A stretch of 64,000 nt of DNA from NCBI GenBank assembly GCA_964433155.1, contig CAYSQE010000003.1, positions 12,061 through 76,060 on the forward strand, in the 5' to 3' direction. The notes beneath the pieces were generated by a model. That model saw nothing but the letters and a program-made list of their open reading frames with translations, made no database searches and had not been told where the DNA came from. Each line of letters starts with the position of its first letter. Positions within the stretch are counted from its first letter, which is position 1. A program made the translations under genes and the position numbers. This document shows positions 27,820 through 63,890 of this stretch, piece by piece. This DNA is from an uncultured Gammaproteobacteria bacterium (GTDB lineage: Bacteria; Patescibacteriota; Microgenomatia; UBA1406; GWC2-37-13).

Positions 27820-27825
27820 AAAAAA

Positions 27826-28967: not shown

Positions 28968-29647
28968 TTCTTTCAGCAGGGAAAGGAATTCGCCTTTATC
29001 CTTTGACAAAAAAAATCCCTAAAGTAATGGTCGAGGTTAAAGGCAAACCACTTCTTAAACATCACTTAATGCTGCTTCGTAAATATGAAATTAAGGAGAT
29101 TTTTATCAATCTTTTCACGCTGCCAGATATAATTAAAAACTATTTTGGAGACGGAAGGAGATTTGGAGTGCGGATAAAATATGCAACAGAATCAACACTT
29201 TTAGGATCAGCTGGCGCTCTACAAAATTTCAAAAAAGAGCTAAAAGATAATTTTTTTGTCTTATACGGAGATGTTTACATGCAAATTGATCTTTTGAAAA
29301 TGTTAAATTTTCACAAAAGAAAAAATTCGCTATTTACCTTAGTGATGCACGAAGCAAAACATCCTCAAGACAGCGATCTTTTAGAGATAAACTACAATCA
29401 AAGAATCACGAATTGGATCAAAACTCCTCACTCAAGAAAATCAGGGGTTAATAGTGCTGGTTTATATATTATTAACAAGAGTGTCTTGAAATATCTGCCC
29501 AAAAAAGTTCCTTTTGATTTTTCTCATGATTTTATTCCATTTCTTATGAAGAAAATTCCTATGTTTGCTTATTACACAACAGAATTAATTATGGATATAG
29601 GAACCCCAGAAAGGTATAATAAACTTTTATCTATACTTAAAAAATGA
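28955..29647 (+). CDS. hddC: Sugar-1-phosphate nucleotidyltransferase, heptose-1-phosphate guanylyltransferase-like
   Basis: MQAIILSAGKGIRLYPLTKKIPKVMVEVKGKPLL; last gene of the heptose set. Confidence 0.7.
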   Translation: MQAIILSAGKGIRLYPLTKKIPKVMVEVKGKPLLKHHLMLLRKYEIKEIFINLFTLPDIIKNYFGDGRRFGVRIKYATESTLLGSAGALQNFKKELKDNFFVLYGDVYMQIDLLKMLNFHKRKNSLFTLVMHEAKHPQDSDLLEINYNQRITNWIKTPHSRKSGVNSAGLYIINKSVLKYLPKKVPFDFSHDFIPFLMKKIPMFAYYTTELIMDIGTPERYNKLLSILKK

Positions 29648-30735
29648 ATAAACGCGTACTCGTCACCGGCGGTGCTGGTTTTATCGGCTCGCACACCGTA
29701 GACGCTTTAGTTAAAAAAGGCTACAAAATTAAAATCCTCGATTCACTTACCAAACCAGTACATCAACGAGGCAGCCCTGATTATTTAAATAAAGAAGCCG
29801 AATTTATCGACGGCGATGTGCGAAATAAAAGCGCCTGGGAAAAAGCCTTAAAGAATGTAAGCATTGTCTTTCATCTTGCAGCATATCAGGATTACCTTCC
29901 AAATTTCAGTAAATATTTTGACGTTAACGCCAAAGGAACGGCTCTTTTATATGAAATAATCGTGGAAAAAAAATTAAAAATCGAAAAAGTTATCATCGCC
30001 TCCTCGCAGGCAATCTATGGTGAAGGAAGATATGCCTGTAAAAATAATCATATCATCTATCCTACACAACGCTCGTTCAAGGATTTAAAAAAGAAAAAAT
30101 GGGATTTTAACTGTCCGCATGATAAACTTCCGCTTATCCCGCAATGGGTAAATGAAGGCGATTTTATCGACCCGCACAATCAATACGGAATTTCAAAGTA
30201 TAGTCAAGAAAAAATCGGTATTCATCTCGGCAAGCGCTATCAAATTCCGACAGTTGCTATGCGATACTCCATAGTCCAAGGACCCCGCCAGTCGCCTTTT
30301 AATCTTTACTCTGGAGTGTTGAGAATCTTTATAACGCATCTTCTAGGCAGAAAGCCGCCAACGATTTTTGAAGATGGTAATCAAATTAGAGATTTTGTCA
30401 ACATCCACGATGTAGTTTCGGCAAATATTCTTGTTCTTGAAAATAAAAAAGCAGACTATCAAGTATTTAATGTCGGCGGAGGTAAAAGGTACACAGTCAA
30501 CGAATTTTATAAGATTGTGCAGAAAATTTTGAAAACTGACATTAAACCTGTAAGAGACGGTTCATTTAGAGTAGGTGACACAAGGCATATCTTCTCTAGC
30601 ATTGAAAAAATGAAAAACCTCGGTTTCAAACCTACATATTCAATTACGGACTCTATTCATTCATATATTACCTGGTTACAAACATTAGCGAATTTTAATA
30701 ATGGAAACAGTAAAATGCATTTGTGGAAAAAATGA
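29644..30735 (+). CDS. NAD-dependent epimerase/dehydratase (extended SDR)
   Basis: VLVTGGAGFIGSH Rossmann motif and the YGISKYSQE catalytic YxxxK. Carries a Cys-containing insert (RYACKNN...FNCPHD). Confidence 0.8.
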   Translation: MNKRVLVTGGAGFIGSHTVDALVKKGYKIKILDSLTKPVHQRGSPDYLNKEAEFIDGDVRNKSAWEKALKNVSIVFHLAAYQDYLPNFSKYFDVNAKGTALLYEIIVEKKLKIEKVIIASSQAIYGEGRYACKNNHIIYPTQRSFKDLKKKKWDFNCPHDKLPLIPQWVNEGDFIDPHNQYGISKYSQEKIGIHLGKRYQIPTVAMRYSIVQGPRQSPFNLYSGVLRIFITHLLGRKPPTIFEDGNQIRDFVNIHDVVSANILVLENKKADYQVFNVGGGKRYTVNEFYKIVQKILKTDIKPVRDGSFRVGDTRHIFSSIEKMKNLGFKPTYSITDSIHSYITWLQTLANFNNGNSKMHLWKK

Positions 30736-33784: not shown

Positions 33785-35908
33785 ATGAAGAAATTAACCT
33801 CGCATCTTCTGCCAATTTTTTTTCTCGTCATATTATCTATCGCTGTCCATCATACTTGGTTTACCAATTTATCTCCAATAACTTCTGGCGATTGGTATGT
33901 CGATTACTCTGAAAAATTAAATGAATATTTCTCTTTTCCAATCATGTGGAACTCTGATTATTCTTTCGGAACACCAAATTTAGGCGTTTCGTTCTGGCCA
34001 TTTCTATCATTTGTTGGGTTTTTATCGAATTTAAATTTTTCTCCTTACCTTATTGAAAGAATTGTTTTTTTATGGCCTATTGCAATATTACTTCCTTTGG
34101 GCGCTTATTTTCTTTCTTATTATCTTTTTCGGTCAACAATAGCCTCAATTGTTAGCGCTCTTATTTTCGAATTCAATACCTATATGATTATTTTACAAGG
34201 CGGCCATCTGACACTACTTATGGCGATATCTCTTACTCCGTTTTTTTTGCTCTTTTTCCTAAAAACTCTATCAAGCAGTAAACTTTTTTTAGCAGTGATC
34301 ACATCTCTTATTGGATTTATGATAAGTTTCTATGAGTTTAGAATTTTTTACCTCGCCGTCTGGATGGTATTTTTTTATCTGATTTATCACTTAACTATTC
34401 TCAGAGAGTTCAAGGGATTAATAGATTTTGTAAAAAAATTGGCTTTATCTTTAACTATCATAATCATAATTTTACTTCTCAATTTCTATTTTTTTTTCGG
34501 CATATATGGTATGCAATCCTTAGCAGATAATGCATTATTCAACCGCAGTCTTTTTGGCGCTTGGTATATTACTCTCTCTAAAACCATGACTATTTTTCAC
34601 TTCGGATGGACAGGCGGTGTAATTGTACCATGGAAAATTCAACCGCTGCTTGTCAGATTTTTTTTCATTCCCATACTTGCGCTCTTGGGTTTTATTGTTG
34701 GAAAAAAAGATAAAAGGCTCCCATTTTTTGCACTTCTTGGAGTCTTAGGAATCTTTTTAGCCAAACAAAATACGCCTCCGTTCCCGGATATTTATCAGTG
34801 GCTCTTTGACCACGTTCCTGGTTTTAATGCTTTTAGAGAATCAGGCAAATTTTTATTGTATGTAGCTATATCATACAGTGTACTAATCGGAGCATTTATC
34901 TCTTGGTTCTGGGATAAATCAGAACTAAAGATAAACAGATCGCTTAAGATTCTTACTGTCTTTCTTATTGCGTTTCTTATTATTTGGAATTCAAAACCCA
35001 TAATTACTGGTGAACTCGGAGCGCTCTTTGTCCAAAGAAAAATTCCCAATGACTATTTGATACTAAACGAATATCTCACGGCGCAAAAAGAATATTTCAG
35101 AACATTTTGGACTCCGGACTACTCTCGATGGGGTCATTATTTGAGTATTCACCCGCGAACCAGTGTACTCTATCTTAATCTCTTTGAATGGTTGGATTTT
35201 GCTAAAAAAGGCAATCCTATCGGCAGCATTTACTTCAATCAACTTCTTGACCTATCTTCCATTAGATATGTGATCGTTCCAATACAGGATAAAAGTAACG
35301 ATGATGATTTTTTTCCCCAGACAAACAAACGGATTAACTTCATTTCAGAACTTGAAAGATTACCTTACCTTAAGAAAATTAATGTTGGATTTAAGGAATT
35401 GGTAATGTTCGAAAATTTTAATTACCGTCCCCATATTTATTCAACACAAAAAAAAGAAAGAATTTACTCATATGTGCCTTACCAAAAAATTAAATATTCC
35501 ATGGTAAACCCAACACAGTATAAAATCATTTTAAAAAATGTTAAAGAAGCGGTTTATTTAAATTTTTCTGAAAATTATAATCCGAATTGGAAGATAAGAG
35601 TTGGGAAATTTAGTTGGTTTGCTACACTTACAGGTAAAAATTATTTTCTCTCAGATGATATTCACTTCAAAAATGAGGCGAAATTAAATTCTTTTATTAT
35701 CGACGTCCAACAAATTTGCAAAAAACAAGACGCGTGCATAAGCAATTCTGATGGAAGCTATGATATAAATCTAACAGTTTATTTCTCACCACAATCGTAT
35801 CTTTACATCGGACTAATAATCAGCGCAGTTGCATTTTTTACCTGTATAGGTTATTTAATTATAACTTTAATCAAAATTGGTTTAAAAACTAACTATTTAG
35901 TTACATGA
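33785..35908 (+). CDS. Large polytopic membrane protein, GT-C-like glycosyltransferase candidate
   Basis: About 13 hydrophobic helices, a soluble domain of about 230 aa, and a terminal TM; 707 aa. Confidence 0.45.
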   Translation: MKKLTSHLLPIFFLVILSIAVHHTWFTNLSPITSGDWYVDYSEKLNEYFSFPIMWNSDYSFGTPNLGVSFWPFLSFVGFLSNLNFSPYLIERIVFLWPIAILLPLGAYFLSYYLFRSTIASIVSALIFEFNTYMIILQGGHLTLLMAISLTPFFLLFFLKTLSSSKLFLAVITSLIGFMISFYEFRIFYLAVWMVFFYLIYHLTILREFKGLIDFVKKLALSLTIIIIILLLNFYFFFGIYGMQSLADNALFNRSLFGAWYITLSKTMTIFHFGWTGGVIVPWKIQPLLVRFFFIPILALLGFIVGKKDKRLPFFALLGVLGIFLAKQNTPPFPDIYQWLFDHVPGFNAFRESGKFLLYVAISYSVLIGAFISWFWDKSELKINRSLKILTVFLIAFLIIWNSKPIITGELGALFVQRKIPNDYLILNEYLTAQKEYFRTFWTPDYSRWGHYLSIHPRTSVLYLNLFEWLDFAKKGNPIGSIYFNQLLDLSSIRYVIVPIQDKSNDDDFFPQTNKRINFISELERLPYLKKINVGFKELVMFENFNYRPHIYSTQKKERIYSYVPYQKIKYSMVNPTQYKIILKNVKEAVYLNFSENYNPNWKIRVGKFSWFATLTGKNYFLSDDIHFKNEAKLNSFIIDVQQICKKQDACISNSDGSYDINLTVYFSPQSYLYIGLIISAVAFFTCIGYLIITLIKIGLKTNYLVT

Positions 35909-37464
35909 TTAAAAAAAATACTCTTATAACCATTTTTATGGGCGCTATTTTCCTTGTATCTTTACTTTATCGACTATATGGGCTTTCCACGAATAATCCG
36001 CCTTTTTGGGTAGATGAATTTGCCTCTGCCAATCAAGGAAAACTGCTATTTCAGCAGGGTTTTGGAGTTTTTTTTAATCCCAATACAGTTCTTGAGCATT
36101 ACAATATCACAACTCATCTCTTGATTGCAGCCTCGTATAAATTCTTTGGTGTGAATGAATTTGCTGCACGATTTCCTCCGGTTGTCATTGGTTCATTTAT
36201 ACCTGTGGCAGTTTTCTACCTAGCAAGACACCTTACCAATATCTCAACCTCAATATCAGCGAGTCTCCTGGTTGCCTTTTCCTATTTCGAGATTACCTGG
36301 TCGCGCCAGGCTAGAGGATACATTATCGTCCAGTTTTTAGTACTCTTGGGTTTTCTTCTTTATCTGAAACTAGTTGATATAAAAAAACCAAATATTATTT
36401 TATCTGTAATCTTCTTCCTAACAATTTTTTTGGGGGTAATAACTCATCCTCTCTACTACATTTTTCTAATTAGCCTTGCTTTTCATTTTCTCCTTACCAA
36501 TCATAAACGCGTCATTGAACTATTAAAAAAACCTTGGCTCTACCTTCTAGCTTCTTTTTTATTTCTTATTATTTATAAAATTGGTTTTATTAATGCTCTG
36601 ATTCGCATGTTTAATTCTGGAACTTTCCTCACAGATAACTTTTGGTATTACCATCCCTTCTTGTGGAGAGAGTATGGGCTTGTCTCCTTTTTAGCTATAC
36701 TTGGATTCTTGTTTTTGTTTTTTAAAAAAAACAAGATGATTCTTCCCATACTTATCTATATTGGAGTCCATCTTATCTTTATAACCTTTATCTTCAAACC
36801 CTACGTCTCTCGCTATCTTCTTCCCGTCTTCCCTTTTTTTATTATTGGAACTTCTTACTTATTGTCTGAGGTCTCAAAAATACTTAGTAACCATCTTGGT
36901 GCCGACCGAGCCAAGTTGGTATTTACTTTAGGTCTGACTTTTTTTATTATTGTAAACGGCCATAAGTTTGTAAATAAGCCGAAAAAATACTACTCGCTCA
37001 ATCATGATTTTAGAGAGATTGCCAATATAGACTATCATCAAGTCTACAATATCATCAAGAAGAACTCGGAAATTGACAACAATAAATTAGTTATCATCGA
37101 AACTTGGTGGGATCGCGCGCATTGGTACTTGGGAGACGATTTTAAAAACATTGTAGCATTTCGCTGGTTAGACGAAGGCTTTGTAAACGGCATCTCAAAA
37201 AAAATCAACTACTTTGTAAATGAAAAGGGAGAAAAGATACTTAAAGGCGACAGTTTGCACCTGGTTCTGGAAAAAAAAGATCTTCAACTATATATGGAAA
37301 GATATCCGCGGGGATTTATTTTTATCGACGATTCATCACTACCAAACGACGTTATAAAATTTGCTGAAAAAAATCTCAAGAAGGAACTCTATCTTGATCA
37401 CTATCCATTCGATGATAACCCTTATTCCATCTGGCCTGCAACGCTCTACAGCTGGGGGATATAA
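35905..37464 (+). CDS. GT-C fold glycosyltransferase (ArnT/PMT, GT39/GT83-like)
   Basis: First-loop acidic motif PPFWVDEFASANQG, followed by more than 10 TM helices and a soluble C-terminal domain. Confidence 0.6.
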   Translation: MIKKNTLITIFMGAIFLVSLLYRLYGLSTNNPPFWVDEFASANQGKLLFQQGFGVFFNPNTVLEHYNITTHLLIAASYKFFGVNEFAARFPPVVIGSFIPVAVFYLARHLTNISTSISASLLVAFSYFEITWSRQARGYIIVQFLVLLGFLLYLKLVDIKKPNIILSVIFFLTIFLGVITHPLYYIFLISLAFHFLLTNHKRVIELLKKPWLYLLASFLFLIIYKIGFINALIRMFNSGTFLTDNFWYYHPFLWREYGLVSFLAILGFLFLFFKKNKMILPILIYIGVHLIFITFIFKPYVSRYLLPVFPFFIIGTSYLLSEVSKILSNHLGADRAKLVFTLGLTFFIIVNGHKFVNKPKKYYSLNHDFREIANIDYHQVYNIIKKNSEIDNNKLVIIETWWDRAHWYLGDDFKNIVAFRWLDEGFVNGISKKINYFVNEKGEKILKGDSLHLVLEKKDLQLYMERYPRGFIFIDDSSLPNDVIKFAEKNLKKELYLDHYPFDDNPYSIWPATLYSWGI

Positions 37465-38114
37465 GTCATCTTCAAAAAGTATTTTTCAGCCTTTTTTAAC
37501 CCCCTCTCTTCTTCCCAGCTAACCATACCTGGTTTTTCATGCTTTTTTAGAGGTATCTTGTATAGATCCTTAAACCCATTTCTTCTGTAAAAATCGATTG
37601 CTCTTTTGTTATCGTCCAAAACGCGAAGATATAGATGCTTTGGTTTAAGTTTTTTGGCAGACCAATTTATAAGAGATTTTAATGCAAATGACATTACTCC
37701 TTTTAGGTTTTCCTTATCGCCTCGGACGACATTATCTATCTCGCACGAATTACTCCTGAAGTTAAAAGTAAAAAGCCCTATGTGACCGATGAGTCTTGAT
37801 TTTTTTTCCTTACTCTCGATGAAAAATAATATTCTGGTTGGATTTTCGATTAATCCCTTGGTCCATTTTTTTGTGCCGCCAAAGGTCACCTTAAATTGAG
37901 AAGCAAAAGCAAAAGAATTCTCATCTCTCCACTTAGCAAGTAATTTTATTTCTCCATCTTTTCTTAAAATGCTTTTGGTTATTGGTTTTAAGAATGCAAT
38001 TATATCACCCTGGCTATTGTAGATAGGCAATTTATTGGGAAGGTCCTCGCTGAATCGTTCATCTTTCCAATTCTTGAAGGTATTTAATACATTGGTTTTA
38101 AATTTTCTGATCAT
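37446..38114 (-). CDS. GNAT-family N-acyltransferase
   Basis: LRVLDDNKRAIDFYRRNGFKD (GNAT motif A region). Last gene of the CDP-sugar operon. Confidence 0.6.
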   Translation of the reverse strand: MIRKFKTNVLNTFKNWKDERFSEDLPNKLPIYNSQGDIIAFLKPITKSILRKDGEIKLLAKWRDENSFAFASQFKVTFGGTKKWTKGLIENPTRILFFIESKEKKSRLIGHIGLFTFNFRSNSCEIDNVVRGDKENLKGVMSFALKSLINWSAKKLKPKHLYLRVLDDNKRAIDFYRRNGFKDLYKIPLKKHEKPGMVSWEEERGLKKAEKYFLKMTYIPQL

Positions 38115-38115
38115 G

Positions 38116-39225
38116 TCATACTTTGAGAACTTTCCTCAACATTTTGGCTACATAATCAATTTCCTCTTCAGTTCGCATTAGGCCACTTGGCAGGTTAATT
38201 CCGTTGAAAGAAATGTGATGAGCAACATGAGTATTTTGTTCTTTAAATATGGGAAACATGCTTATTGGCCAGAAAAAGGGACGGGAATCAATCATTTTTT
38301 CTTTAAGTTTTTTTATGATCTCATTTCTTGATATGCCAAAATCCTTATCTAGGATGATCGAACTCATCCAACGATTGCTTTTTGTGTATGGTCGTTCATA
38401 GTTCATCGAGATTCCTTTGATGTCTTTCAAGCGTTTATGATACCAATCAAATATCTTTCTTTTTTTATTGACAAAGCTTTCGATTCTTTCCAACTGCGCA
38501 AGAGCGAAAGCAGCTTGAAGATTAGACATTTCATGTGAATATCCCACCTCAATCTGCCAAAACTTTTTGCCATGAAGTTCACCGTGGCCGTTTAAAAACT
38601 TAGCTCTATCGTATAACTTTCTATCATTTGTAACAAGCATTCCGCCAAATCCTGTCACCATAATTTTGGCTCCTTGGAAACTAAATGCTCCAAAATCGCC
38701 AAAACTTCCTGGTCTTTTTCTCTTATAAATGCTTCCTACAGCAGGACAGGCATCTTCAACCACAGAAAGATTATATCCTCTTGCAATCTGTATGATTTCA
38801 TCCATGTCTGCAGGATTGCCATAGATATGAACCGGCATAATGGCCTTAGTCCGTTTAGTTATTGCTTTTTTAATTTTTTCCGGATCTATACACCATGTAT
38901 CTTTTAGGATATCGACAAATACCGGTTTGGCGCCAAGATAGAAGATGACGTCAGAACAGGAAAAATAAGTTATATCGGGCAATATCACTTCGTCTCCTTT
39001 GCCAACTCCTAAACTGGCAAGCGCCAGATGAAGCGCACCAGTCCCTCCACAAGTTGAAATTGCATATTTAACGCCAATATATTTGGCAAATTCTTCTTCA
39101 AATCTGTGTACATAATCCGCGTAATGCTCATTCCAGCCATTTTTTGCCGCATCCATGACGTAATCAACTTCTTTTTGGCTAACCCAAGGTCCTGCGGTTA
39201 AAATCATCCTTTTAGGCTTATACAT
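38116..39225 (-). CDS. DegT/DnrJ/EryC1-family sugar aminotransferase
   Basis: CGGTGALHLALASLG, VEDACPAVGS, and FSFQGAKIMVTGFGGMLVTN, which retains the Lys. Confidence 0.85.
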   Translation of the reverse strand: MYKPKRMILTAGPWVSQKEVDYVMDAAKNGWNEHYADYVHRFEEEFAKYIGVKYAISTCGGTGALHLALASLGVGKGDEVILPDITYFSCSDVIFYLGAKPVFVDILKDTWCIDPEKIKKAITKRTKAIMPVHIYGNPADMDEIIQIARGYNLSVVEDACPAVGSIYKRKRPGSFGDFGAFSFQGAKIMVTGFGGMLVTNDRKLYDRAKFLNGHGELHGKKFWQIEVGYSHEMSNLQAAFALAQLERIESFVNKKRKIFDWYHKRLKDIKGISMNYERPYTKSNRWMSSIILDKDFGISRNEIIKKLKEKMIDSRPFFWPISMFPIFKEQNTHVAHHISFNGINLPSGLMRTEEEIDYVAKMLRKVLKV

Positions 39226-39245
39226 ATGTAAAACGATATTGATTT

Positions 39246-40499
39246 TTATTTCTTGAATTGCACAATAAATCGTTCAATAATAGTTTTCACATATGCAATC
39301 CGCTCACTGTCTATCTCTGGAAAAACGCCTAGCCAAAATGCGCTATTCATCACATAGTCTGCATTTTTTAGATTATCAATAATTTTATACGATATATCTT
39401 TATATGCAGGATGCCTGAGTAAATTGCCAGAAAAAACATTTCTTGTCCCAATTTTTTTAGCTTCGAGATATTCGGTCAATTGATTACGCGTAAAAGGAGC
39501 CTCACCTCTTACTACGATGGGAAATCCAAACCAGCAAGGGTCTTCCTTCGGTGTAGTTTTCATAAGGATAAAATATTTTTGTAACTTTTTAAAAAATTCA
39601 TAGTATTTCTTAAAGTTTTCTTTTCTTTTTTTGCTGAAGTAGGGGAGCTTCTTAAGTTGAGCCACACCAATAGCCGCCTGAAAATCAGTCAGTTTCAGAT
39701 TGAATCCGATCTGCGAATAACTGTATTTATGGTCATAGCCAAAAGGAAGATCTCCAAGCTTCCAGCCAAAACGGCGCCTGCAAGTATCATCTTTGCCAGT
39801 ATCGCACCAACAGTCTCGTCCCCAATCACGAAACTGCCTTATTGCCATATGAACCAAAGGATTATTTGTGATCACTGCACCGCCCTCGCCCATAGTGATT
39901 TGATGTGCAGGATAAAAACTAAATGTAGCAATATGTCCATATGTACCTACCAATTTCCCGTCATATCGAGAACCCAGAGCATCGCAACAGTCTTCTATAA
40001 GCCATAAATTATATTTTTTAACGAGCTTCATTACTACATCCAGATTAAAAGGCTTACCAAGTGTATGAGCCATCATGATCAACTTTGTTTTTTTTGTCAC
40101 TGCTCTCTCGAGCTGCTGAATGTTTGCATTTAATGTATCAATATCTGAATCGACAAAAACCGGTTTTAGACCGTAAATAATTCCCGGATTTACAGTCGTT
40201 GGAAAAGCAACTGCTGTAGTGATAAACTCGTCTCCGGGCTTTAAACGTCTTTCTCCAAAAACTATTGACGTGAGAGAAGCAAGTGCGACCAGATTTGCCG
40301 AAGATCCAGAATTAACCAGTGATACATACCTTACCCCCATAAATTTTTTGAAGTCTGACTCGAATTGTTTCCCAAACTCTCCTTCCGTCCACCAGCCGTC
40401 CTTAGCCGCTTTAATTAGATTTTTTATTTCTGCTTGGTCGTAGACTTTTCCTGAAACCCGTACGTATGTCTCACCAGGAATAAATTTTGAATTTTTCAT
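39246..40499 (-). CDS. rfbH: CDP-6-deoxy-4-keto-hexose 3-dehydrase (E1, RfbH/DdhC type)
   Basis: FSFYPAHQITMGEGG has His where aminotransferases carry the PLP Lys. The Cys pattern EDCC-x57-C-W-C-x7-C (RDCWCDTGKDDTC) matches the E1 [2Fe-2S] motif. ATG 40499 overlaps the upstream stop as ATGA; the ORF track begins at GTG 40517. Confidence 0.85.
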   Translation of the reverse strand: MKNSKFIPGETYVRVSGKVYDQAEIKNLIKAAKDGWWTEGEFGKQFESDFKKFMGVRYVSLVNSGSSANLVALASLTSIVFGERRLKPGDEFITTAVAFPTTVNPGIIYGLKPVFVDSDIDTLNANIQQLERAVTKKTKLIMMAHTLGKPFNLDVVMKLVKKYNLWLIEDCCDALGSRYDGKLVGTYGHIATFSFYPAHQITMGEGGAVITNNPLVHMAIRQFRDWGRDCWCDTGKDDTCRRRFGWKLGDLPFGYDHKYSYSQIGFNLKLTDFQAAIGVAQLKKLPYFSKKRKENFKKYYEFFKKLQKYFILMKTTPKEDPCWFGFPIVVRGEAPFTRNQLTEYLEAKKIGTRNVFSGNLLRHPAYKDISYKIIDNLKNADYVMNSAFWLGVFPEIDSERIAYVKTIIERFIVQFKK

Positions 40500-41449
40500 G
40501 ATATTTTTTTGTACCACTTATATATTTTCTCTGCAGTTTTTTTAAAATTATATTTTGGTTTCCAGCCTAATTTTTTTTTAATTTTCGAGTAATCGAGGGA
40601 TTGATAGGGTATCTCATTTTTTGCTGCATCTAAAATTTTATACCTGAGCTTCTTTTTCAGCAATCTCTGGATATGTTGAATAACTTCAAGGACAGACAAC
40701 GTCTCATCAGATCCAAAATTAAAGGGCTCACCTTTAAGTTTGTCAATATTGTCCGCAAGCAACATATAACCGTCAACCACGTCTTTCACATATAGATAAT
40801 CTCTCACATATTTCCCGTTGCTTCTAACCTCCAGCGTCTCACCAGTAACCATCGACCTCATGATTCCGGGTACGATCCTTGAATAATTTAGATCTCCTTC
40901 ACCGTAAATATTTCCAAAACGTGTTGTGCAAACCGGAAGTTGATACGTTTTAAAATATGAGTTAGCAATAATATCTGCGGCTGATTTGGAAGATTCGTAG
41001 GGATGGTCACCTTTTAGTGAATCTTCTTCAACATATTTGTCTTTTTTTAATTTACCATAGGCTTTATCAGACGAAGCAACAATCGCTCCTTTTATCCTGG
41101 GATAGAGACGAACGCTTTCCATTACATTTACTGTTCCCATAACATTGGTTGCGAATGTTCTTTGCGGATTGTAATAAGCTGTTCCAACAAGAGCCTGAGC
41201 TGCAAGATGAAATATGTAATCAACTTCATATTTGGTCACGACGTCAAATAGTTCGTTAAAATCATTCACATCAACATGCGTCATTCTCACCTTTTTATGG
41301 AGTTTCTGAGAGAAAAAATATGACTTAGGATTGGTTGTAATGAATGTGGTTGTAACATTAGCCTCACGTCTTACCAGCTCCTCGACAAGATGCGAGCCTA
41401 CAAATCCCGTCCCACCAGTAACTAAGACATTTTGATCTTTTATCTCCAT
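40496..41449 (-). CDS. rfbG: NDP-sugar 4,6-dehydratase (probable CDP-glucose 4,6-dehydratase)
   Basis: VLVTGGTGFVGSH and the YESSKSAAD catalytic YxxxK; located between rfbF and rfbH. ATG 41449 is preferred over the TTG at 41458. Confidence 0.7.
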   Translation of the reverse strand: MEIKDQNVLVTGGTGFVGSHLVEELVRREANVTTTFITTNPKSYFFSQKLHKKVRMTHVDVNDFNELFDVVTKYEVDYIFHLAAQALVGTAYYNPQRTFATNVMGTVNVMESVRLYPRIKGAIVASSDKAYGKLKKDKYVEEDSLKGDHPYESSKSAADIIANSYFKTYQLPVCTTRFGNIYGEGDLNYSRIVPGIMRSMVTGETLEVRSNGKYVRDYLYVKDVVDGYMLLADNIDKLKGEPFNFGSDETLSVLEVIQHIQRLLKKKLRYKILDAAKNEIPYQSLDYSKIKKKLGWKPKYNFKKTAEKIYKWYKKIS

Positions 41450-42219
41450 ACTTCCCAAGGGGGATTACCAGCTTGCCAAATTTTGTTTAATTCTTCATAC
41501 TCTTTGTGTGTGTCTACTGAAAACCAAAATCCGTTGTGGCGATACAAAGAAAGTTCCTTCTCTTTGGCCAATCTTACAAGCGCCGGGTGTTCTGTCTCTC
41601 CTGGTCGTAAATAATTAAATACCCTTTTGTCAAAAACCATATAACCTCCATTCACCCAGTCTTTCAATACGGGTTTTTCTGTAAATCTTTCCACTTTGTT
41701 TCTTCTGTTAACCCAAACCAAACCATATCTTGAACGTGGATGCACTCCGGTTATCGTTCCGATAGTTTTTTGCCGTTTTTGGAACTTAACAAGAGAGTCT
41801 ATATTCAAATCTGTAAGTCCATCTCCGTAAGTTACCATAAAATATTTATCTTTGGCGGATATATATTTTTGGCAGCGAAGAATTCGCTCACCTGGTTGAG
41901 TCTCTAGTCCTGTGTCTACAAAGGTTATTTTGTACTCATCTACTTGCTCTCTATCATCAAGATAAAATTTGGTTTTGTGACTACGAGTATTAAGACTAAA
42001 ATCTGCAGTGAAAGCTTTTTGATTCAAAAAAAAGTCCTTTATATAGTCTGCCTTATAGCCCAAAGCGAGAATAAATTCATTGAATCCATAATAGGAGTAA
42101 ATCTTCATGATGTGCCAAATAATGGGTTTTTTCCCTATGTAGACCATCGGCTTTGGCTTAAATTCCGTCTCTTCTTTTAAACGTGTTCCCAAACCTCCAC
42201 AAAGAATGATGACTTTCAT
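41440..42219 (-). CDS. rfbF: Glucose-1-phosphate cytidylyltransferase
   Basis: MKVIILCGGLGTRLKEETEFKPKPMVYIGKKPIIWHIMKIYSYYGFNEFILALGYK and a C-terminal GNPPWEVW, typical of RfbF/DdhA. Confidence 0.85.
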   Translation of the reverse strand: MKVIILCGGLGTRLKEETEFKPKPMVYIGKKPIIWHIMKIYSYYGFNEFILALGYKADYIKDFFLNQKAFTADFSLNTRSHKTKFYLDDREQVDEYKITFVDTGLETQPGERILRCQKYISAKDKYFMVTYGDGLTDLNIDSLVKFQKRQKTIGTITGVHPRSRYGLVWVNRRNKVERFTEKPVLKDWVNGGYMVFDKRVFNYLRPGETEHPALVRLAKEKELSLYRHNGFWFSVDTHKEYEELNKIWQAGNPPWEVWR

Positions 42220-43133
42220 AAAGATGAAGTTATTTTATTATAAATTCCAGCTGCGTCAAGACCTAAAACTTTTCGCAAGTAAGACCTTGTTCCGACATTT
42301 TTAATGACTTTGTGTTGAGTTCCGATTCTGATCACCCGTGTTCCTGGGACATATTCTGAAACAACCTCGGATACGACAGAACCTAATCCGCCAATCATCC
42401 CATGTTCCTCTATGACAAATAGAGTTTTAAAGCGTTTTGCTTGATTTATGATTAAATCTTTGTCAATGGGTTCCACCGTATGAATGTTAATGACGCCTGC
42501 CTCTATTTTTTTATTTTTTTTAAGCATATCTGCAGCTTTTATGACTTCCTCCATTATTACCCCAGTTGAAAATAAGACTGTATCAATACCGATTTTTAAA
42601 ACCACGCCTTTGCCAAAACGAAATGAGTAAGAGTAAGCATTTATAATTGGTTCCTGTCTTCCACCGACTCTTATATAGACTGGCCTATGATAGTTTGCTA
42701 AATATTTAAGACCTTTGACAGCTTCTATTTCATCCACCGGAGAAAAAATGGACATATTTGGCAACGGCCTAAGAATTGCTATATCTTCCAGCGCAAAGTG
42801 CGTGCTACTCAAGATTCCGTATGATAGTCCAGACCCGATGCCTAGAAGCGTGATATCAAGATCATGGTAGCAGACGTCGTTACGAATCTGTTCAAAACAT
42901 CGCATGATAAGAAATGGGATGATGGAGTAGATAAAGACTTTTTTACCAGATAGAGCAAGGCCTGATGCGATGCCTATCATATTTTGCTCAGCTACTCCAA
43001 CGTTGATAAATCTTCCATGAAAATCGCTTTCTATCTTTTCAACCGCGCGATAACCAAGATCACCTGTCAAAAAATAACTATTCTTATTAGATTTCATAAT
43101 GTTATAGATTTCTTGTATTATTGCGGTTCTCAC
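42216..43133 (-). CDS. Transketolase, C-terminal (pyrimidine-binding) subunit
   Basis: FINVGVAEQNMIGIASGLALSGK and a C-terminal domain; pairs with the N-terminal subunit upstream. Confidence 0.85.
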   Translation of the reverse strand: MRTAIIQEIYNIMKSNKNSYFLTGDLGYRAVEKIESDFHGRFINVGVAEQNMIGIASGLALSGKKVFIYSIIPFLIMRCFEQIRNDVCYHDLDITLLGIGSGLSYGILSSTHFALEDIAILRPLPNMSIFSPVDEIEAVKGLKYLANYHRPVYIRVGGRQEPIINAYSYSFRFGKGVVLKIGIDTVLFSTGVIMEEVIKAADMLKKNKKIEAGVINIHTVEPIDKDLIINQAKRFKTLFVIEEHGMIGGLGSVVSEVVSEYVPGTRVIRIGTQHKVIKNVGTRSYLRKVLGLDAAGIYNKITSSL

Positions 43134-43152
43134 TTTTTAAACTTTAAAAAAT

Positions 43153-43968
43153 TTATAAACTTTCAAGTAATTGTTTTTTTGTCTCTTCATCAAGTGATAT
43201 ATAGTGTGCCTCAAATTTCCCCTCAAATCCCGGCAAACCCCAGCCTTTGACTGTTTTTGCAATTATAAAATGGGGGGAAGAATTTTTTGTTTTAGCTTTT
43301 TGAGTAAATACTTTATCTAAACTTTCAAAGTCGTGACCATTTGCCTCATAGACATTCCAATGAAAATCTCTAATTTTTTGGGGAAGAGGTGAGAGATCTA
43401 ACACTTCTTCAGTTGAACCATATCCTTGAAAATGGTTGTTGTCGACAATTACCGTCAGATTATGAATTTTGTGATGTGCGGCGTACATAATGGCTTCCCA
43501 ATTAGATCCTTCGTTAAGTTCACCGTCAGACATCAATACATAGACTTTGTTATTTTTTTTATCATTCAAAAATGAGGTGGCAAAACCAATTCCAATTGGC
43601 AGTCCGTGACCAAGAGATCCAGTAGAAATCTCAATTCCAGGTGCGACTCTGCTTGAATGCTCGGGTAAAATACCGCCGTCTTTATCATAACTGAGTAAGA
43701 CTTCTTTAGTGAAAAAACCTCGCTCATATAGAACCGTATACAATGCCAATCCCGCATGTCCTTTGCTCAAGATGAATATATCCCTGTCTGAATTTGTGGG
43801 TTGCTTTGGGTCGACATGTAGAACTCGATAATAAAGATAGGTGAGAATCTCAACTATCGAGTAAGAACAACCAATATGGTGGCTTTCTTTAGGCCTTATT
43901 GCTTGCATCATATCTCTTCTCACTTGTTTAGATATTTTTTTAAGCTCGGCGAAGTTTTTTTTCATCAC
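43153..43968 (-). CDS. Transketolase, N-terminal (ThDP-binding) subunit
   Basis: HIGCSYSIVEIL, ILSKGHAGLALY, GSLGHGLPIGIG and the ThDP motif MSDGELNEGSNWEA. Confidence 0.85.
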   Translation of the reverse strand: MMKKNFAELKKISKQVRRDMMQAIRPKESHHIGCSYSIVEILTYLYYRVLHVDPKQPTNSDRDIFILSKGHAGLALYTVLYERGFFTKEVLLSYDKDGGILPEHSSRVAPGIEISTGSLGHGLPIGIGFATSFLNDKKNNKVYVLMSDGELNEGSNWEAIMYAAHHKIHNLTVIVDNNHFQGYGSTEEVLDLSPLPQKIRDFHWNVYEANGHDFESLDKVFTQKAKTKNSSPHFIIAKTVKGWGLPGFEGKFEAHYISLDEETKKQLLESL

Positions 43969-44012
43969 TAATAGCTGATAGTATATAATATTTTAACTAA
44001 TGTCAAAACAGT

Positions 44013-44891
44013 ATGAGTGATAAAACAAAAGCAATAATTGCAATTCTTATTGCTTCACTTATTAGTGGGGGTGCTTCAGCATTCACAAAAATTGGTTTAA
44101 TAAAAATTCCTCCATTTACTTTCTCATTTCTTCGCTTTTTAATAGCATCAATAGCCATCTTGCCAATATTTTTAAAATCAAAACCAAAAATAAATAAGTC
44201 TTTGGTTCCATTAATTTTCTTTTCAGTTCTTCCAATTGTCAATGTAGCTTTTTTTGTAGCGGGAGTTAAGCTTACTACGGCTTCTATTAGCCAAATGTTA
44301 TATGCAGCAACGCCTATTTTGGCTGGTATTCTTTCCTATTTTATTCTTCGGCACAAACTCTCAATTAAAAGGTGGCTCTTTATTTTACTTGGACTCGTTG
44401 GCGTAATTTTTGTAGTCGCTCTCCCAATCTTTGAAAAAGATACTTTGTTTGGAGGTGATCTTAAAGGAAATTTGTTCATCAGCTTTGCAGTTGCAGTATG
44501 GTCCTTATACGTTGTTTTATCTAAGAAATTTCAGAAACAATTTTCTCCGCTCGTCATAACATCCATTTTTATTTTCCTTGCAACCTTGATTTTTTTCTTT
44601 CTCTCTCTTACAGAACTTAAAGGAAATGCTAATCTGTGGCAGAAAATAAATTCATCATCGACTGTTGCAATCATTTATGTGGCTGTCTTTGTGACTGTTG
44701 GAGGTTATTTGCTTAATCAATATGCTATTAAATTTGCTGGCCCAATTGCGGCCTCACTTACGTTTTATATCCTACCAATTTCAGGATATTTTTTTGCCTT
44801 TTTTTTGCTCGGAGAAAAAATCACGGAGGGGCTTGTTATTGGAACTATGCTTGTATTTATAAGTATAGCTTTAACCACTTACTCGAAGTAG
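44013..44891 (+). CDS. EamA/DMT-superfamily transporter
   Basis: 10 hydrophobic helices in two homologous halves; 292 aa. Confidence 0.7.
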   Translation: MSDKTKAIIAILIASLISGGASAFTKIGLIKIPPFTFSFLRFLIASIAILPIFLKSKPKINKSLVPLIFFSVLPIVNVAFFVAGVKLTTASISQMLYAATPILAGILSYFILRHKLSIKRWLFILLGLVGVIFVVALPIFEKDTLFGGDLKGNLFISFAVAVWSLYVVLSKKFQKQFSPLVITSIFIFLATLIFFFLSLTELKGNANLWQKINSSSTVAIIYVAVFVTVGGYLLNQYAIKFAGPIAASLTFYILPISGYFFAFFLLGEKITEGLVIGTMLVFISIALTTYSK

Positions 44892-46391: not shown

Positions 46392-47939
46392 ATGGAAAAA
46401 AATGTTTCAATAATAATAATTCATTGGAATACGCCTGAACTTCTGCGAAAACAACTCATTTCATTAACTTCAAATATTAAGACAAGCGAGTTAATAGTGA
46501 TAGATAATGCCTCAAAAGAATCATTAGATTGGATTAATAAAGATTTTTCTCAAGTTCAACTTATTCAAAATAAATTAAATAGAGGCTATGCCTTTGCTTG
46601 TAATCAAGGAACGATACAAAGTAGAGGAGAGTGGCTTCTTTTTTTAAATCCCGATGTTGAGATTTCTAACCGTCAAATCAAGCAACTTGTTGAATACGCA
46701 AAAAAAAATAATTTAGACGCTTGTTCGCCAAAAACTACCCATTCATATCAAAAACCACTTCCGACGTGGTTTTCTCTACTTAGTGAATTTACGCCATTAG
46801 TCAAACTGGTACCGTTAAACTTATTCGCACAAAAAACGCTTTTTGGCGGATGTCTGCTAATAAAGGCTGAGGTTTTGAAAACTTTGGGAGGTTGGGATGA
46901 GCGTTTTTTTCTCTGGTTTGAGGATAGTGACCTTACGGTTAGATTGACAAAGAACGGATATAGAATTGGCTGGTTTTCTGCCCCTATTAAACATCTAGGA
47001 GGAACGTCTTTTAAAACCCTTGATAACCAACTACAACGAGATATTTTTTTTCAGTCTATGGATATCTTTGCTAGAAAACATTTCTCCTTATTTGGAAAAT
47101 TTATAGTTTCTTTGATTAAAAAGCGTTATTCAAAACGAAAACTTCTGCCAAAATTATCTAAGGAAACAAACATAACTATTCCAAACCTCAAATTAAACCT
47201 TCTTAAGTATTTTTTTGAAAAAAACAAAAATATTTTACACACCTCCGGAGTGTGTTGGACAGTCATAACAAGCTCTTTAAATAATATGACTATTTGGCAA
47301 TGGAGAAAAAGATACCCAGATATTAGATTTATTCCAATTGAAGAAAATAAAGGGTTTGCATCAACTGTAAATATCGGATTTAGAGTTTCAGCCGGAAACT
47401 GGCTCGGAACGGTAAACGACGATATTATTTTGTCAAGAAATTGGTTGACGAATTTATTATTCTGTAAAAAAGACGAAACGGGTTCAATAAATTCCACAAT
47501 ATATAAAGAAAGTGGAGATATCGAATCTGCAGGAATTACTGTCAGACCAAATGGTAAAGCCTATCCTCTCAAAAAATTAACTAGTGAGTCCTGTTTTGAG
47601 GTAGATGCCACAAACGCTGCTGCTGTAATCTATTCCCAAGAAGCAATAAATAAGGTCGGACTGTTTGATGAAAAATTCGGGTCTTATCTTGAAGATATTG
47701 ACTTATCTTTACGCTTAAAAAGAATGGGTTATAACAATCTTGTATCCTTGAAATCAACAGTCACTCATCTAGGCCAAGAAACATCTAAAGAGTTGGGTTG
47801 GAAAAAACAATACTATGATTTTAAAAACTGGATTTTGGTAATTTTGAAAAATTGGGGAATAAGACAATTAGTCCTAAACTTTCCAGCGATATTTATTGAA
47901 AGATTGAGAAATCTCTCAGGAGTTTTTAAATCGTTTTAA
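46392..47939 (+). CDS. Tandem double-domain family 2 glycosyltransferase
   Basis: Domain 1: VSIIIIHWNT...VIDNASKE...NRGYAFACNQG...FLNPDVEI...WFEDSDLTVRL. Domain 2: ENKGFASTVNIG...VNDDIIL...YLEDIDLSLRL. Confidence 0.75.
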   Translation: MEKNVSIIIIHWNTPELLRKQLISLTSNIKTSELIVIDNASKESLDWINKDFSQVQLIQNKLNRGYAFACNQGTIQSRGEWLLFLNPDVEISNRQIKQLVEYAKKNNLDACSPKTTHSYQKPLPTWFSLLSEFTPLVKLVPLNLFAQKTLFGGCLLIKAEVLKTLGGWDERFFLWFEDSDLTVRLTKNGYRIGWFSAPIKHLGGTSFKTLDNQLQRDIFFQSMDIFARKHFSLFGKFIVSLIKKRYSKRKLLPKLSKETNITIPNLKLNLLKYFFEKNKNILHTSGVCWTVITSSLNNMTIWQWRKRYPDIRFIPIEENKGFASTVNIGFRVSAGNWLGTVNDDIILSRNWLTNLLFCKKDETGSINSTIYKESGDIESAGITVRPNGKAYPLKKLTSESCFEVDATNAAAVIYSQEAINKVGLFDEKFGSYLEDIDLSLRLKRMGYNNLVSLKSTVTHLGQETSKELGWKKQYYDFKNWILVILKNWGIRQLVLNFPAIFIERLRNLSGVFKSF

Positions 47940-48893
47940 ATCTGCATCAACCATCATTTTTACTAGCACTTCAAAGCTTACTTTCGATTTCCAGCCAAGA
48001 ATTTTCTTAGCTTTGCTGGGTCTTGCTCTAAGAGCATGAACTTCTGCAGGTCTCTTAAATCTCGCATCACTTATTACGTATTTTTTCCAATTATCAATCT
48101 TAGCATATTTGAAAGCCAAATCAACAAACTCCTTCACATTATGATTTTCTCCTGTTCCAACAACAAAATCATCTGGTTTTTCCAGCTGAAGCATCAAATG
48201 CATCGCTTCAACATAATCACCGGCAAACCCCCAATCTCGCTTAGCCTCCAGATTACCAAGGTATAATTTGTCAGTTAAACCCATTTTTATTTTAGCCACA
48301 CCGTTGGTAATTTTGCGAGTGACAAACTGTATACCTCTTATGGGTGACTCATGATTAAAAAGTATACCGCTGCAGGTAAAAAGCCCATAGCTTTCTCTGT
48401 AGTTTACCGTCATCCAATGGGCATATACTTTTGAAATCCCGTATGGACTCCTGGGATGAAATGGCGTATTTTCGTCTTGAAAACCGTTGTCGTGTTGAAG
48501 ACCAAACATCTCTGAGGTTGATGCCTGGTAAAATTTAGCAGTCGGGCAAAATGACTTTATCGCATTCAAAAGATATAACACACCTATAGCGTTGATTTCT
48601 GAAGTAAGCTTTGCCATCTCCCATGAACTGCCAACAAACGATTGAGCTGCAAGATTGTATACCTCATCCGGTCTAACGTTTTTAATTACAGAGTATAACG
48701 AAGATTCGTCGGTCAGATCACCATCTACATATTCAATTTTATCAGTTAGATTTAGGAAATCTAAATTTTCAAAATTAGGATTCGAGTATCTCCTAGTCAT
48801 TCCATACACTTTATATCCTTTGGATAAAAGGAGTTTGGCTAAATAAGGCCCATCCTGCCCAAGTATCCCTGTGATTAAAGCCGTTTTTGCCAT
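47916..48893 (-). CDS. gmd: GDP-mannose 4,6-dehydratase
   Basis: ALITGILGQDGPYLAKLLLSKGYKVYGM, SPYGISKVYAHW and NHESPIRG. Confidence 0.9.
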   Translation of the reverse strand: MAKTALITGILGQDGPYLAKLLLSKGYKVYGMTRRYSNPNFENLDFLNLTDKIEYVDGDLTDESSLYSVIKNVRPDEVYNLAAQSFVGSSWEMAKLTSEINAIGVLYLLNAIKSFCPTAKFYQASTSEMFGLQHDNGFQDENTPFHPRSPYGISKVYAHWMTVNYRESYGLFTCSGILFNHESPIRGIQFVTRKITNGVAKIKMGLTDKLYLGNLEAKRDWGFAGDYVEAMHLMLQLEKPDDFVVGTGENHNVKEFVDLAFKYAKIDNWKKYVISDARFKRPAEVHALRARPSKAKKILGWKSKVSFEVLVKMMVDADLKRFKNS

Positions 48894-48972: not shown

Positions 48973-50271
48973 ATGATCCCCAGGTTGATTAATTTCGCAA
49001 AACGACCGACAAGTGTTAATGTCATTATCAATACCTTCGGAAACTACCTAAATGTATTTTTTACAGCTCTTTTCGCTCTCATTCTTGTCCGCATTTTGAC
49101 TCCTCCACAATATGGAGTTCTAAGCGTGCTTCTAGGTATCGCATATGTTCTAGCAAACATTCTCGACTTTGGCACAACAGCTACAATTTATTCTTATCTA
49201 CCAAATTTATATGAAAAAAAGACATACGAGCTTTATCGATTTATCAAAAGTACTTTCTATTATCAATCCATTTTTTCTTTTTTTGTTATCGCAGTTTTGT
49301 TAATATCTTTTCCCTTCTTAGATAAAGTTTTTTTCAAAACAGATGCTCCCTGGTCAGAGCTTGCTTTAACTTCGATCTCAGTTTTATTTTTAATCTGGCA
49401 AAATTTTCTGCAAAATATACTTTTTGCCGCAAAAAAATTTGTCAAGACAAATGTATATTTGAATATCGCCAACATCATTAAAACGCTTATTGTTTTTCTT
49501 ATGATTTATTTGAAAATTATCACAGTAGGATCGGTGATTTTTGTCTTTGGAATTTTAGGACCCGTCATATTTTTTTTCTTGCTTTTTTTAGAGAAGAAAG
49601 ATCTTGTCTCGATTTTTCTTAAGTCCGAAGTTAAACGAAGCGAATTTAGGTTTGGCTACACTTTGACATATTTCTTAGCTTCTCAATTTTTTAACCTGGG
49701 ACTTCGCATGGATCTTTTTCTTCTATCTTATTTCAGATCTAAAACCGAGGTAGGATATTATGGACTTTCACAAAAAATTATTTTAACGATTATTACTACC
49801 ATAGTTAGTATCACGCAAGTCTTATCGCCCTCATTTTCTAAGATAACCAGAAAATCAGAAGCGTTATCTCAACTTAAGACTGGATTCATGTATCTTTTAC
49901 TCCCTTCGGCACTCTTTTTTATTCTTTTTTTCACACCAAAGGAAGTCTATGATCTTTTTTTTACCGACAAATTTGTACAAACTGCACCTATAACACGGGC
50001 CCTAAGCTTACCTTTTGTGCTATATGCTCTCGGCAGCCTTCCTGTCTTATTTCTTTTATATACGGTCAAAAAACCCGTTTATATTTTAATCTCAAATGTT
50101 GTTTTCTTTATCATTTTAACCCTAGGATGTTATTTTTTAATTCCGAAGATGGGCGTCTTTGGCCCACCATACGCTATAGCTTTAGCCCTCATCGTTGCAA
50201 CAGGTATTCAAATAGTCGCCAGCATCAAGGAGTTTAAGAAAATGTTCTCACCCCGCTCCCAGACTTCATAA
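48973..50271 (+). CDS. MOP/Wzx-type polysaccharide flippase-like membrane protein
   Basis: About 12 TM helices. ATG 48973 is chosen because the ORF-track GTG 48871 would overlap the gmd start. Confidence 0.55.
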   Translation: MIPRLINFAKRPTSVNVIINTFGNYLNVFFTALFALILVRILTPPQYGVLSVLLGIAYVLANILDFGTTATIYSYLPNLYEKKTYELYRFIKSTFYYQSIFSFFVIAVLLISFPFLDKVFFKTDAPWSELALTSISVLFLIWQNFLQNILFAAKKFVKTNVYLNIANIIKTLIVFLMIYLKIITVGSVIFVFGILGPVIFFFLLFLEKKDLVSIFLKSEVKRSEFRFGYTLTYFLASQFFNLGLRMDLFLLSYFRSKTEVGYYGLSQKIILTIITTIVSITQVLSPSFSKITRKSEALSQLKTGFMYLLLPSALFFILFFTPKEVYDLFFTDKFVQTAPITRALSLPFVLYALGSLPVLFLLYTVKKPVYILISNVVFFIILTLGCYFLIPKMGVFGPPYAIALALIVATGIQIVASIKEFKKMFSPRSQTS

Positions 50272-51626: not shown

Positions 51627-51633
51627 AAATTTG

Positions 51634-51705
51634 AGCGGTGGAGGGGATTTGAACCCCTGACCTTCTCCTTGGAAGGGAGACATTCTACCGCTGAACTACC
51701 ACCGC
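51634..51705 (-). tRNA. tRNA-Gly (anticodon UCC)
   Basis: Reverse complement GCGGTGG-TA-GTTC-AGCGGTA-GAAT-G-TCTCC-CTTCCAA-GGAGA-AGGTC-AGGGG-TTCAAAT-CCCCT-CCACCGC-T folds as a cloverleaf. Anticodon loop is CT-TCC-AA. No encoded CCA. Confidence 0.9.
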
Positions 51706-61244: not shown

Positions 61245-61254
61245 TGTTCTGTCG

Positions 61255-63882: not shown

Positions 63883-63890
63883 ATACTAAT

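Follow-up and report, generated by a model that had tools for sequence, protein, structure and literature searches.

What is a split transketolase doing in an operon for a CDP-linked deoxysugar? The question is raised by a 64-kb stretch of DNA (the window) from a metagenome-assembled genome of Candidatus Roizmanbacteria, a member of the candidate phyla radiation (CPR), in which seven genes on the minus strand form an operon at 37446-43968. Genes were identified with Pfam and NCBIfam profiles run on the open reading frames (ORFs) of the window, and the closest structures come from PDB matches. The operon is best read as a cell-envelope sugar operon of this CPR bacterium. Its two transketolase genes very probably encode a dedicated sugar-pathway enzyme, not a pentose-phosphate transketolase. 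We hold the chances at about even that this enzyme acts like YerE, adding a two-carbon unit to CDP-4-keto-3,6-dideoxyglucose, and that amination and N-acylation follow. An earlier note on this DNA had named and placed the seven ORFs; all lie where it put them, and the profiles back the identities:

43153..43968, minus strand: TK-N, the subunit of a split transketolase-like enzyme that carries the thiamine diphosphate (ThDP)/PP domain; 271-aa ORF; PF00456/Transketolase_N, 3e-40
42216..43133, minus strand: TK-C, the subunit with the Pyr and C-terminal domains; 305 aa; PF02779 (Transket_pyr) and PF02780 (Transketolase_C)
41440..42219, minus strand: glucose-1-phosphate cytidylyltransferase (RfbF/DdhA-like); 259 aa; TIGR02623
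40496..41458, minus strand: nucleoside diphosphate (NDP)-hexose 4,6-dehydratase of the CDP-glucose type (RfbG/DdhB-like); 320 aa; TIGR02622; start codon uncertain
39246..40517, minus strand: E1, CDP-4-keto-6-deoxyglucose 3-dehydrase (RfbH/DdhC/AscC); 423 aa; NF011936
38116..39225, minus strand: DegT-family sugar aminotransferase; 369 aa; PF01041, 1e-108
37446..38114, minus strand: GNAT N-acyltransferase, distantly PseH-like; 222 aa; PF00583/PF13302

The spacing between these co-directional genes is -22 to +20 bp. TK-N most likely starts at the ATG at 43965, which gives 270 aa. Its sequence is that of a database entry annotated "transketolase [Candidatus Roizmanbacteria bacterium]" (100% identity), which begins one codon later than the 271-aa ORF.

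The nearest solved structures for both subunits belong to the split transketolase of Carboxydothermus hydrogenoformans: 6YAK, its N-subunit, for TK-N (E=1.6e-53) and 6YAJ for TK-C (E=3.3e-49, or 3e-49 rounded). Like that enzyme, the pair is split and carries the ThDP motif and catalytic histidines. TK-N has the counterparts of E. coli His26, His66, His100 and His261 (in SHHIG, KGHA, PEHS and EAHY) and, for the transketolase ThDP/Mg motif GDG-X25-30-N, the sequence SDGELNEG...DNN, and across four close relatives the catalytic histidines and this motif are invariant. TK-C keeps Arg2, the cofactor-activating Glu49 (in AEQN) and His112, which correspond to Arg358, Glu411 and His473 in E. coli numbering and likewise do not vary among close relatives.

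The substrate side of the active site is different. Sugar-phosphate substrates of transketolase are anchored at their phosphate and their C2-hydroxyl by His461, Glu468 and Asp469 (E. coli numbering). In TK-C these residues are replaced by Gly100, Ile107 and Leu108, and the motif reads GSGLSYGILSSTHFALED against the canonical THAGxxVGEDGxxHQxxED. The C. hydrogenoformans enzyme retains THAG...GEDG..HQ, with His461 and Asp469, whereas TK-C of the window has IGSG...GILS..HF. Arg29 replaces Ser385, and the position of Arg520 is shifted or variable. The TK-C substitutions are conserved among relatives. Of what marks a metabolic transketolase (EC 2.2.1.1), the pair therefore has the ThDP and histidine set together with Glu411 and His473, and lacks the substrate-binding residues and a housekeeping, pentose-phosphate context. 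Retention of the donor-side histidines with loss of the phosphate and hydroxyl anchors fits a ketol carrier that accepts a bulky, 6-deoxy, nucleotide-linked ketone.

The same division is seen across genomes. A TK-C profile scan, limited to one genome per species, returned 80 loci. The canonical H...ED..H pattern is kept in 16 of them; in the others the His461 position is taken by Gly or, now and then, by another small residue. None of the 16 canonical split transketolases has RfbF/RfbG neighbours, and their flanks are housekeeping genes. RfbF and RfbG occur together inside 10 kb at 15 non-canonical loci (Fisher p=0.014), and at 23 more non-canonical loci the flanks hold Epimerase, GDP_Man_Dehyd, DegT, methyltransferase, radical-SAM, GT2 and Bac_transf genes. 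The transketolase pairs of glycan clusters can thus be told from metabolic ones by a sequence signature added here, the loss of His461 and Asp469. The earlier note had assigned the pair to the sugar cassette, and would have given this up if transketolase were elsewhere never linked to rfb genes. The changed substrate-binding residues and the linkage to RfbF, RfbG, E1, DegT and GNAT genes in many genomes bear the assignment out.

Across genomes the gene content of the cassette is kept and the order is shuffled. Typical orders, by locus (L numbers; NTP, nucleotidyltransferase; DH, 4,6-dehydratase; SDR, short-chain dehydrogenase/reductase), are:

L003: NTP-DH-TKN-TKC
L009: NTP-DH-TKN-TKC, with DegT and GNAT on the opposite strand, then E1 and GT2
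L136: NTP-DH-GNAT-DegT-TKN-TKC-E1
L155: NTP-DH-E1-GNAT-DegT-TKN-TKC
L152: NTP-DH-E1-DegT-TKN-TKC
L171: NTP-DH-SDR-TKN-TKC-E1
L022 (Nostoc) and L081 (an actinobacterium): NTP-DH-E1-SDR-TKN-TKC

Further cassettes lie at L013 and L032. The hosts include Roizmanbacteria, Doudnabacteria, Liptonbacteria, Sungbacteria, Margulisiibacteriota, Omnitrophota, Nostoc, Rickettsiella, Babeliales, Pelagibacteraceae and Actinobacteria, which adds evidence for the phylogenetic breadth of the non-canonical family. An NTP transferase and a 4,6-dehydratase, the enzymes for an NDP-4-keto-6-deoxyhexose, are always supplied, and E1 often. In nearly every cassette either a second SDR or a DegT and GNAT pair stands beside the transketolase; these are candidate follow-up enzymes for a side-chain ketone.

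Several cassettes carry additional genes. At L018, in a Patescibacteria relative, a gene of the histidine phosphatase superfamily (4838-5566) lies between TK-C and E1, which may hint at a phosphorylated donor or intermediate in that cassette. At L015, L016 and L017 (cluster c13, with hosts in Margulisiibacteriota, Omnitrophota and Doudnabacteria), TylC3-like sugar C-methyltransferases (PF08421/PF08484) are found beside the transketolase pair, and some versions of the cassette may therefore make doubly C-modified sugars. L003/L004 (10079-13373) and L173 (1-2285) encode a DmpF/ErwJ-like acetaldehyde dehydrogenase, a DmpG/ErwI-like 4-hydroxy-2-oxovalerate aldolase and a ThDP enzyme of the decarboxylase type, which L173 has as one 597-aa protein and L003 in split form. 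Such a set is the toolkit for long-branch sugars of the erwiniose type (PMC9306805); here it is found beside the transketolase pair in CPR genomes.

The nucleotide-sugar genes of the operon define the probable acceptor. The cytidylyltransferase scores 264 bits over its full length against TIGR02623 (cutoff 300), the next-best family reaching 82 bits, and homologues with 67-73% identity lie beside the transketolase pair in L003, L009, L012, L013 and L018. TIGR02622 is by far the best-matching family for the dehydratase (222 bits, full length, cutoff 278). This protein matches the CDP-glucose 4,6-dehydratase structures 1RKX/1WVG as well as 6BI4, and is equally near to CDP- and dTDP-glucose 4,6-dehydratases. 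Its motif SSDKAYG has Asp-Lys at the position of Asp-Glu in the dTDP enzymes, a dyad that we take to be the mark of the CDP type. E1 scores 631.7 bits against NF011936, above the cutoff of 423, and matches the Y. pseudotuberculosis E1 structures 3BCX/3BB8 with E=4e-143 over residues 8-417 (~60% identity). His205 stands at the position of the Schiff-base (PLP-binding) lysine, in the motif SFYPAH, and the cysteines are arranged as Cys178-X57-Cys236-X-Cys238-X7-Cys246, a C-X57-C-X-C-X7-C spacing that is presumably the E1 [2Fe-2S] signature. The structural match, the histidine in place of lysine and the cysteine spacing together make this a bona fide E1. Strong homology thus points to a front end that runs from CDP-glucose through the 4-keto-6-deoxy to the 3,6-dideoxy-4-keto sugar; the transketolase, DegT and GNAT steps are inferred.

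The pathway would proceed as follows. Judged by their sequences, RfbF would make CDP-glucose and the 4,6-dehydratase would convert it to CDP-4-keto-6-deoxyglucose, from which E1, an Fe-S and pyridoxamine phosphate enzyme, would strip the 3-hydroxyl to leave the 3,6-dideoxy-4-keto sugar. The electrons for E1 would probably come from a general reductase of the ferredoxin or flavodoxin type, because no dedicated E3 reductase is encoded nearby. In the predicted carboligation, the transketolase pair would then put an activated two-carbon unit on the C4 ketone as YerE does. The donor unit would most likely be glycolaldehyde (hydroxyacetyl), and its transfer would leave a tertiary alcohol whose side chain bears a new ketone. 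DegT could aminate this side-chain ketone and GNAT could N-acylate the amine. The predicted end product is CDP-3,6-dideoxy-4-C-(1-acylamino-2-hydroxyethyl)hexose.

A close model for such a pathway is that of yersiniose A, in which YerE attaches a C2 unit to CDP-3,6-dideoxy-4-keto-glucose and the ketone so created in the side chain is reduced by YerF (PMC12247030, ChemBioChem 2025 review). The Y. pseudotuberculosis cluster (DdhA-D, YerE, YerF) and the operon have a common front end of cytidylyltransferase, 4,6-dehydratase and E1, and both encode a ThDP enzyme; in relatives of the operon an SDR follows the transketolase as YerF follows YerE. YerE has the decarboxylase fold (TPP_enzyme_N/M/C), whereas the enzyme here has the transketolase fold, split in two genes. 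Compared with yersiniose A, the operon also lacks E3, has DegT and GNAT in the place of a YerF-type reductase, and probably uses a ketol donor, not pyruvate. Two-subunit ThDP enzymes that branch a deoxy-keto sugar with a C2 unit, as proposed here, are known in AviB1/B2 and in KbDH-alpha/beta of kibdelomycin. These enzymes, of the alpha-keto acid dehydrogenase type, differ in having the E1-alpha/beta (PDH-like) fold, a pyruvate donor, TDP-sugar substrates and a place in secondary-metabolite clusters. The branch ketone in kibdelomycin is transaminated (PMC12247030), which parallels the proposed order of transketolase, DegT and GNAT.

Deoxysugar branching by ThDP enzymes is established for the YerE and PDH-E1 types; for the transketolase type it is a proposal. 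In miharamycin and amipurimycin biosynthesis, split-gene transketolases are proposed to pass hydroxyacetyl to a keto sugar and are uncharacterised in vitro (PMC12247030, section 2.3). Compared by description, these are likewise split, but they belong to actinomycete nucleoside-antibiotic clusters without CDP-hexoses, against the multi-phylum envelope cassette for a CDP-3,6-dideoxyhexose described here. The only other predicted branchers of the transketolase type are 13 Streptomyces sequences/clusters from genome mining (PMC12247030). It is tempting to propose, tentatively and at somewhat less than even chances, that the non-canonical split "transketolases" of glycan clusters in CPR bacteria, Omnitrophota, cyanobacteria, Rickettsiella, SAR11 and others form a large, unrecognised family that branches NDP-keto-sugars by moving hydroxyacetyl to a ring ketone, and that the operon makes an undescribed branched amino sugar, 3,6-dideoxy-4-C-(1-acylamino-2-hydroxyethyl)hexose, for the surface of the CPR cell.

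The earlier note had treated the missing E3 as a distinguishing feature of the operon. An E3-like gene (DdhD/AscD type, plant-type [2Fe-2S] ferredoxin plus FNR) is indeed absent from the 64 kb, by Pfam on large ORFs and by a six-frame motif scan, and no E3-like ORF was found in 19 related transketolase loci. The detector is a motif regular expression that gave two positives of ~346 aa, and variants may escape it. In a survey of 80 environmental loci around E1 homologues, an E3-like ORF lay nearby in 2. Of these loci, 24 are flanked on each side by 5 kb or more; an E3-like ORF is seen at none of the 24, rfbF at 21 and a transketolase at 1. An E1 gene with no E3 in its cluster is therefore what these lineages usually show, and with 78 of the 80 loci lacking an E3-like ORF nearby, including 24/24 of the well-flanked ones, we have dropped the missing E3 as the key novelty. 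There is also biochemical precedent: SpnQ, of spinosyn forosamine biosynthesis, is an E1-type dehydrase that works without a dedicated or cognate E3, presumably drawing electrons from general ferredoxin/flavodoxin reductases. SpnQ serves a TDP-2,6-dideoxy sugar in an actinomycete, in contrast to the E1 of the window with its likeness to the CDP-specific Yersinia enzyme.

The earlier note had further claimed that the whole window is without a terminal 4-reductase or epimerase. Within the seven-gene operon Pfam finds no SDR besides the dehydratase among the ORFs, and hence no terminal 4-reductase/epimerase of the Abe/Prt/Tyv type there. For the window as a whole the claim fails, and a terminal reductase or epimerase may exist there, given these genes:

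29644-30735: SDR epimerase/reductase-family gene
47916-48893: SDR epimerase/reductase-family gene
57904-58911: SDR epimerase/reductase-family gene
14607-15254: RmlC-like cupin gene

Both products that the earlier note had offered, a 4-acylamino-3,4,6-trideoxyhexose and a C-branched CDP sugar, are still live options. The first would arise if DegT and GNAT acted directly at C4 to give CDP-4-acylamino-3,4,6-trideoxyhexose, with the transketolase making a second branched sugar or having an accessory role. We consider this plausible but less likely, and several observations speak for it or weigh against YerE-like branching. DegT keeps its catalytic lysine (SFQGAK187) and is LegC/PseC-like (LegC-like is its best NCBIfam match, at 324 bits, below cutoff); its nearest structures are 7B0M and the perosamine synthetase 3BN1, which are C4 aminotransferases acting on 4-keto-6-deoxyhexoses. 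Such kinship suits amination directly at C4 no less than amination of a side chain. GNAT has a weak match to PseH (TIGR03585, 35 bits; structure 4XPK), and PseH is a C4-amine acetyltransferase. L092 carries E1, DegT and GNAT, and no transketolase shows in the 3.9 kb upstream or the 10 kb downstream. At L003 and L173 a YerE/ErwE-like ThDP enzyme, with ErwI/ErwJ-like partners, accompanies the transketolase pair, which therefore may not be the C4 brancher there. The cytidylyltransferase (CDP) and 4,6-dehydratase assignments lie just under the NCBIfam cutoffs, and the two-carbon donor, most likely glycolaldehyde, is a candidate only. The key step itself rests on analogy, as no sugar brancher of the transketolase type has been characterised enzymologically (PMC12247030). 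On the other side, direct amination would leave the most conserved member of the cassette, the transketolase, without a function. DegT orthologues (at least 300 bits) are nearly confined to E1 loci that also have the transketolase (3/6, vs 1/73 of transketolase-negative E1 loci; p=0.001), a distribution that argues for a coupling of DegT and GNAT to the transketolase rather than merely to E1. A GNAT orthologue adjoins the DegT orthologue in L003, L009, L013, L032, L136, L155 and L173. Finally, the exchange of an SDR for DegT and GNAT beside the transketolase mirrors the logic of YerE and YerF.

Two other explanations would give the pair a different task. It could be an ordinary pentose-phosphate transketolase that is in the island by chance or that supplies sedoheptulose-7-phosphate to the heptose genes at 26.8-29.6 kb. 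Its plain annotation as "transketolase" would agree with this, as would the existence of split transketolases that are genuine metabolic enzymes (6YAK/6YAJ), the presence of heptose-type GHMP-kinase, SIS, HAD and NTP-transferase genes in the same island, and the fact that a second transketolase is not seen within 64 kb. Nevertheless this is very improbable: the His461 and Asp469 equivalents are replaced in the window and kept in 16/16 canonical split transketolases with their housekeeping neighbours, it is RfbF, RfbG and E1, rather than heptose genes, that accompany the pair in over 15 genomes, and the stop of TK-C overlaps the start of rfbF by 4 bp. Supply of sedoheptulose-7-phosphate in particular is rejected on the active site and on co-occurrence, the conserved neighbour clusters examined being GT2, RmlC-like, RmlD-like and sugar C-methyltransferase genes. 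The pair might instead substitute for E3, if oxidation of the ThDP-bound dihydroxyethyl carbanion fed the [2Fe-2S] cluster of E1 in place of the NADH-dependent reductase. In many loci (L012, L015, L016, L018, L032, L171, L173) the transketolase and E1 genes stand side by side or almost so, and no transketolase locus shows an E3-like ORF. Against this, eight loci (L003, L007, L017, L025, L034, L035, L041, L076) have the transketolase cassette without E1, most E1 loci have neither E3 nor a transketolase, and Pfam finds no redox cofactor domain in the transketolase subunits. We regard this explanation as scarcely credible and have rejected it.

Outside the operon, three features lie directly beside it:

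43978..44006, minus strand: promoter-like site 5' of TK-N; TTGACA-17-TACTAT, 10/12 consensus matches
44013..44891, plus strand: EamA/DMT membrane transporter, divergent neighbour; PF00892, 2e-40
35905..37464, plus strand: PMT_2 (ArnT-like GT-C) glycosyltransferase, convergent neighbour; PF13231

The promoter-like site sits in the 44 bp divergent spacer between TK-N and the EamA gene. It is a consensus match only, and such sites in the region are no more numerous than expected from shuffled sequence. No terminator-like site was found on the minus strand within the operon. Together these features are suggestive only as signals for transcription of the operon. An EamA gene also adjoins the cassette in L003/L004, and PMT_2 orthologues occur near the transketolase cassette in L003, L007 and L012. 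EamA may be a flippase or exporter for a sugar carrier and PMT_2 may be an enzyme that uses the lipid-linked sugar; conceivably, the two could bring the sugar to the cell surface. An Arn-like lipid-carrier route (GT2, EamA and PMT_2) is only weakly supported. The GT2 family found 3' of the cassette in 8 relatives has its best match in the window at 60315-61244, with 26-28% identity, and no clear orthologue beside the operon.

The operon lies inside a glycan island of ~49 kb (about 13.9-62.8 kb) with genes for glycosyltransferases, methyltransferases, flippase-like and PMT_2/GT-C proteins and GDP-heptose-type enzymes. On one side the island is flanked by the housekeeping genes gyrB, gyrA, ppa, folD, miaA and lepA, and on the other by an integrase and tRNA-Leu. 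At that edge, a tyrosine recombinase/integrase gene (62878-63974) is directly beside tRNA-Leu(TAG), which is compatible with mobility of the island or part of it. At 26812-30735 there is a GDP-heptose-type module of GHMP kinase (HddA-like), SIS isomerase (GmhA-like), HAD phosphatase (GmhB-like) and NTP transferase (HddC-like), then an SDR, with several methyltransferases nearby; this points to a modified heptose, perhaps methylated or of a 6-deoxy form, as part of the same glycan. An 853-aa fusion of AMP-binding adenylation, phosphopantetheine carrier and PlsC-type acyltransferase parts, then a family III CoA-transferase, occupies 53194-56825, an unusual acyl-activation and acyl-transfer unit for a CPR glycan island. 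At 59410-62802 a second EamA gene, the GT2 gene at 60315-61244 and a gene for a large membrane protein (DUF2079) form a trio that looks like a module for glycosylation by way of a lipid carrier. A "23S rRNA intervening sequence protein" gene (PF05635) is found in the island at 58969-59379 and also beside the cassette of the Roizmanbacteria relative L003 (16494-16772).

The region 31441-51652 matches contig JACQHW010000104.1 of GCA_016198855.1 at 99.96%. At position 34498, within the ORF at 33785-35908, that assembly has one extra T, which splits a 707-aa membrane-region ORF of no known family into genes of 465 aa and 248 aa; the extra T reflects either variation in the population or an error in assembly. 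Among the public gene calls of the contig there is none at the intact E1 gene. A further PMT_2 ORF (50208-51683) overlaps tRNA-Gly(TCC) at 51633-51705 on the same strand, so its true start is further downstream; the public annotation gives it 472 aa.

In the literature searched, we found no description of a transketolase in a CDP-hexose or O-antigen-type cassette. Branching by transketolases has been treated as an open prediction confined to Streptomyces (PMC12247030), and the pair described here belongs to a broad, uncharacterised family. The conserved seven-gene cassette also adds a defined, obtainable acceptor, CDP-4-keto-3,6-dideoxyglucose. If YerE-like branching by the transketolase pair is true, branched sugars of a new class would come to light in cell envelopes, and the enzymes could serve as biocatalysts in making alpha-hydroxymethyl tertiary alcohols. 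"Transketolase" calls in metabolic reconstructions of CPR bacteria would then partly mis-assign the pentose-phosphate step.

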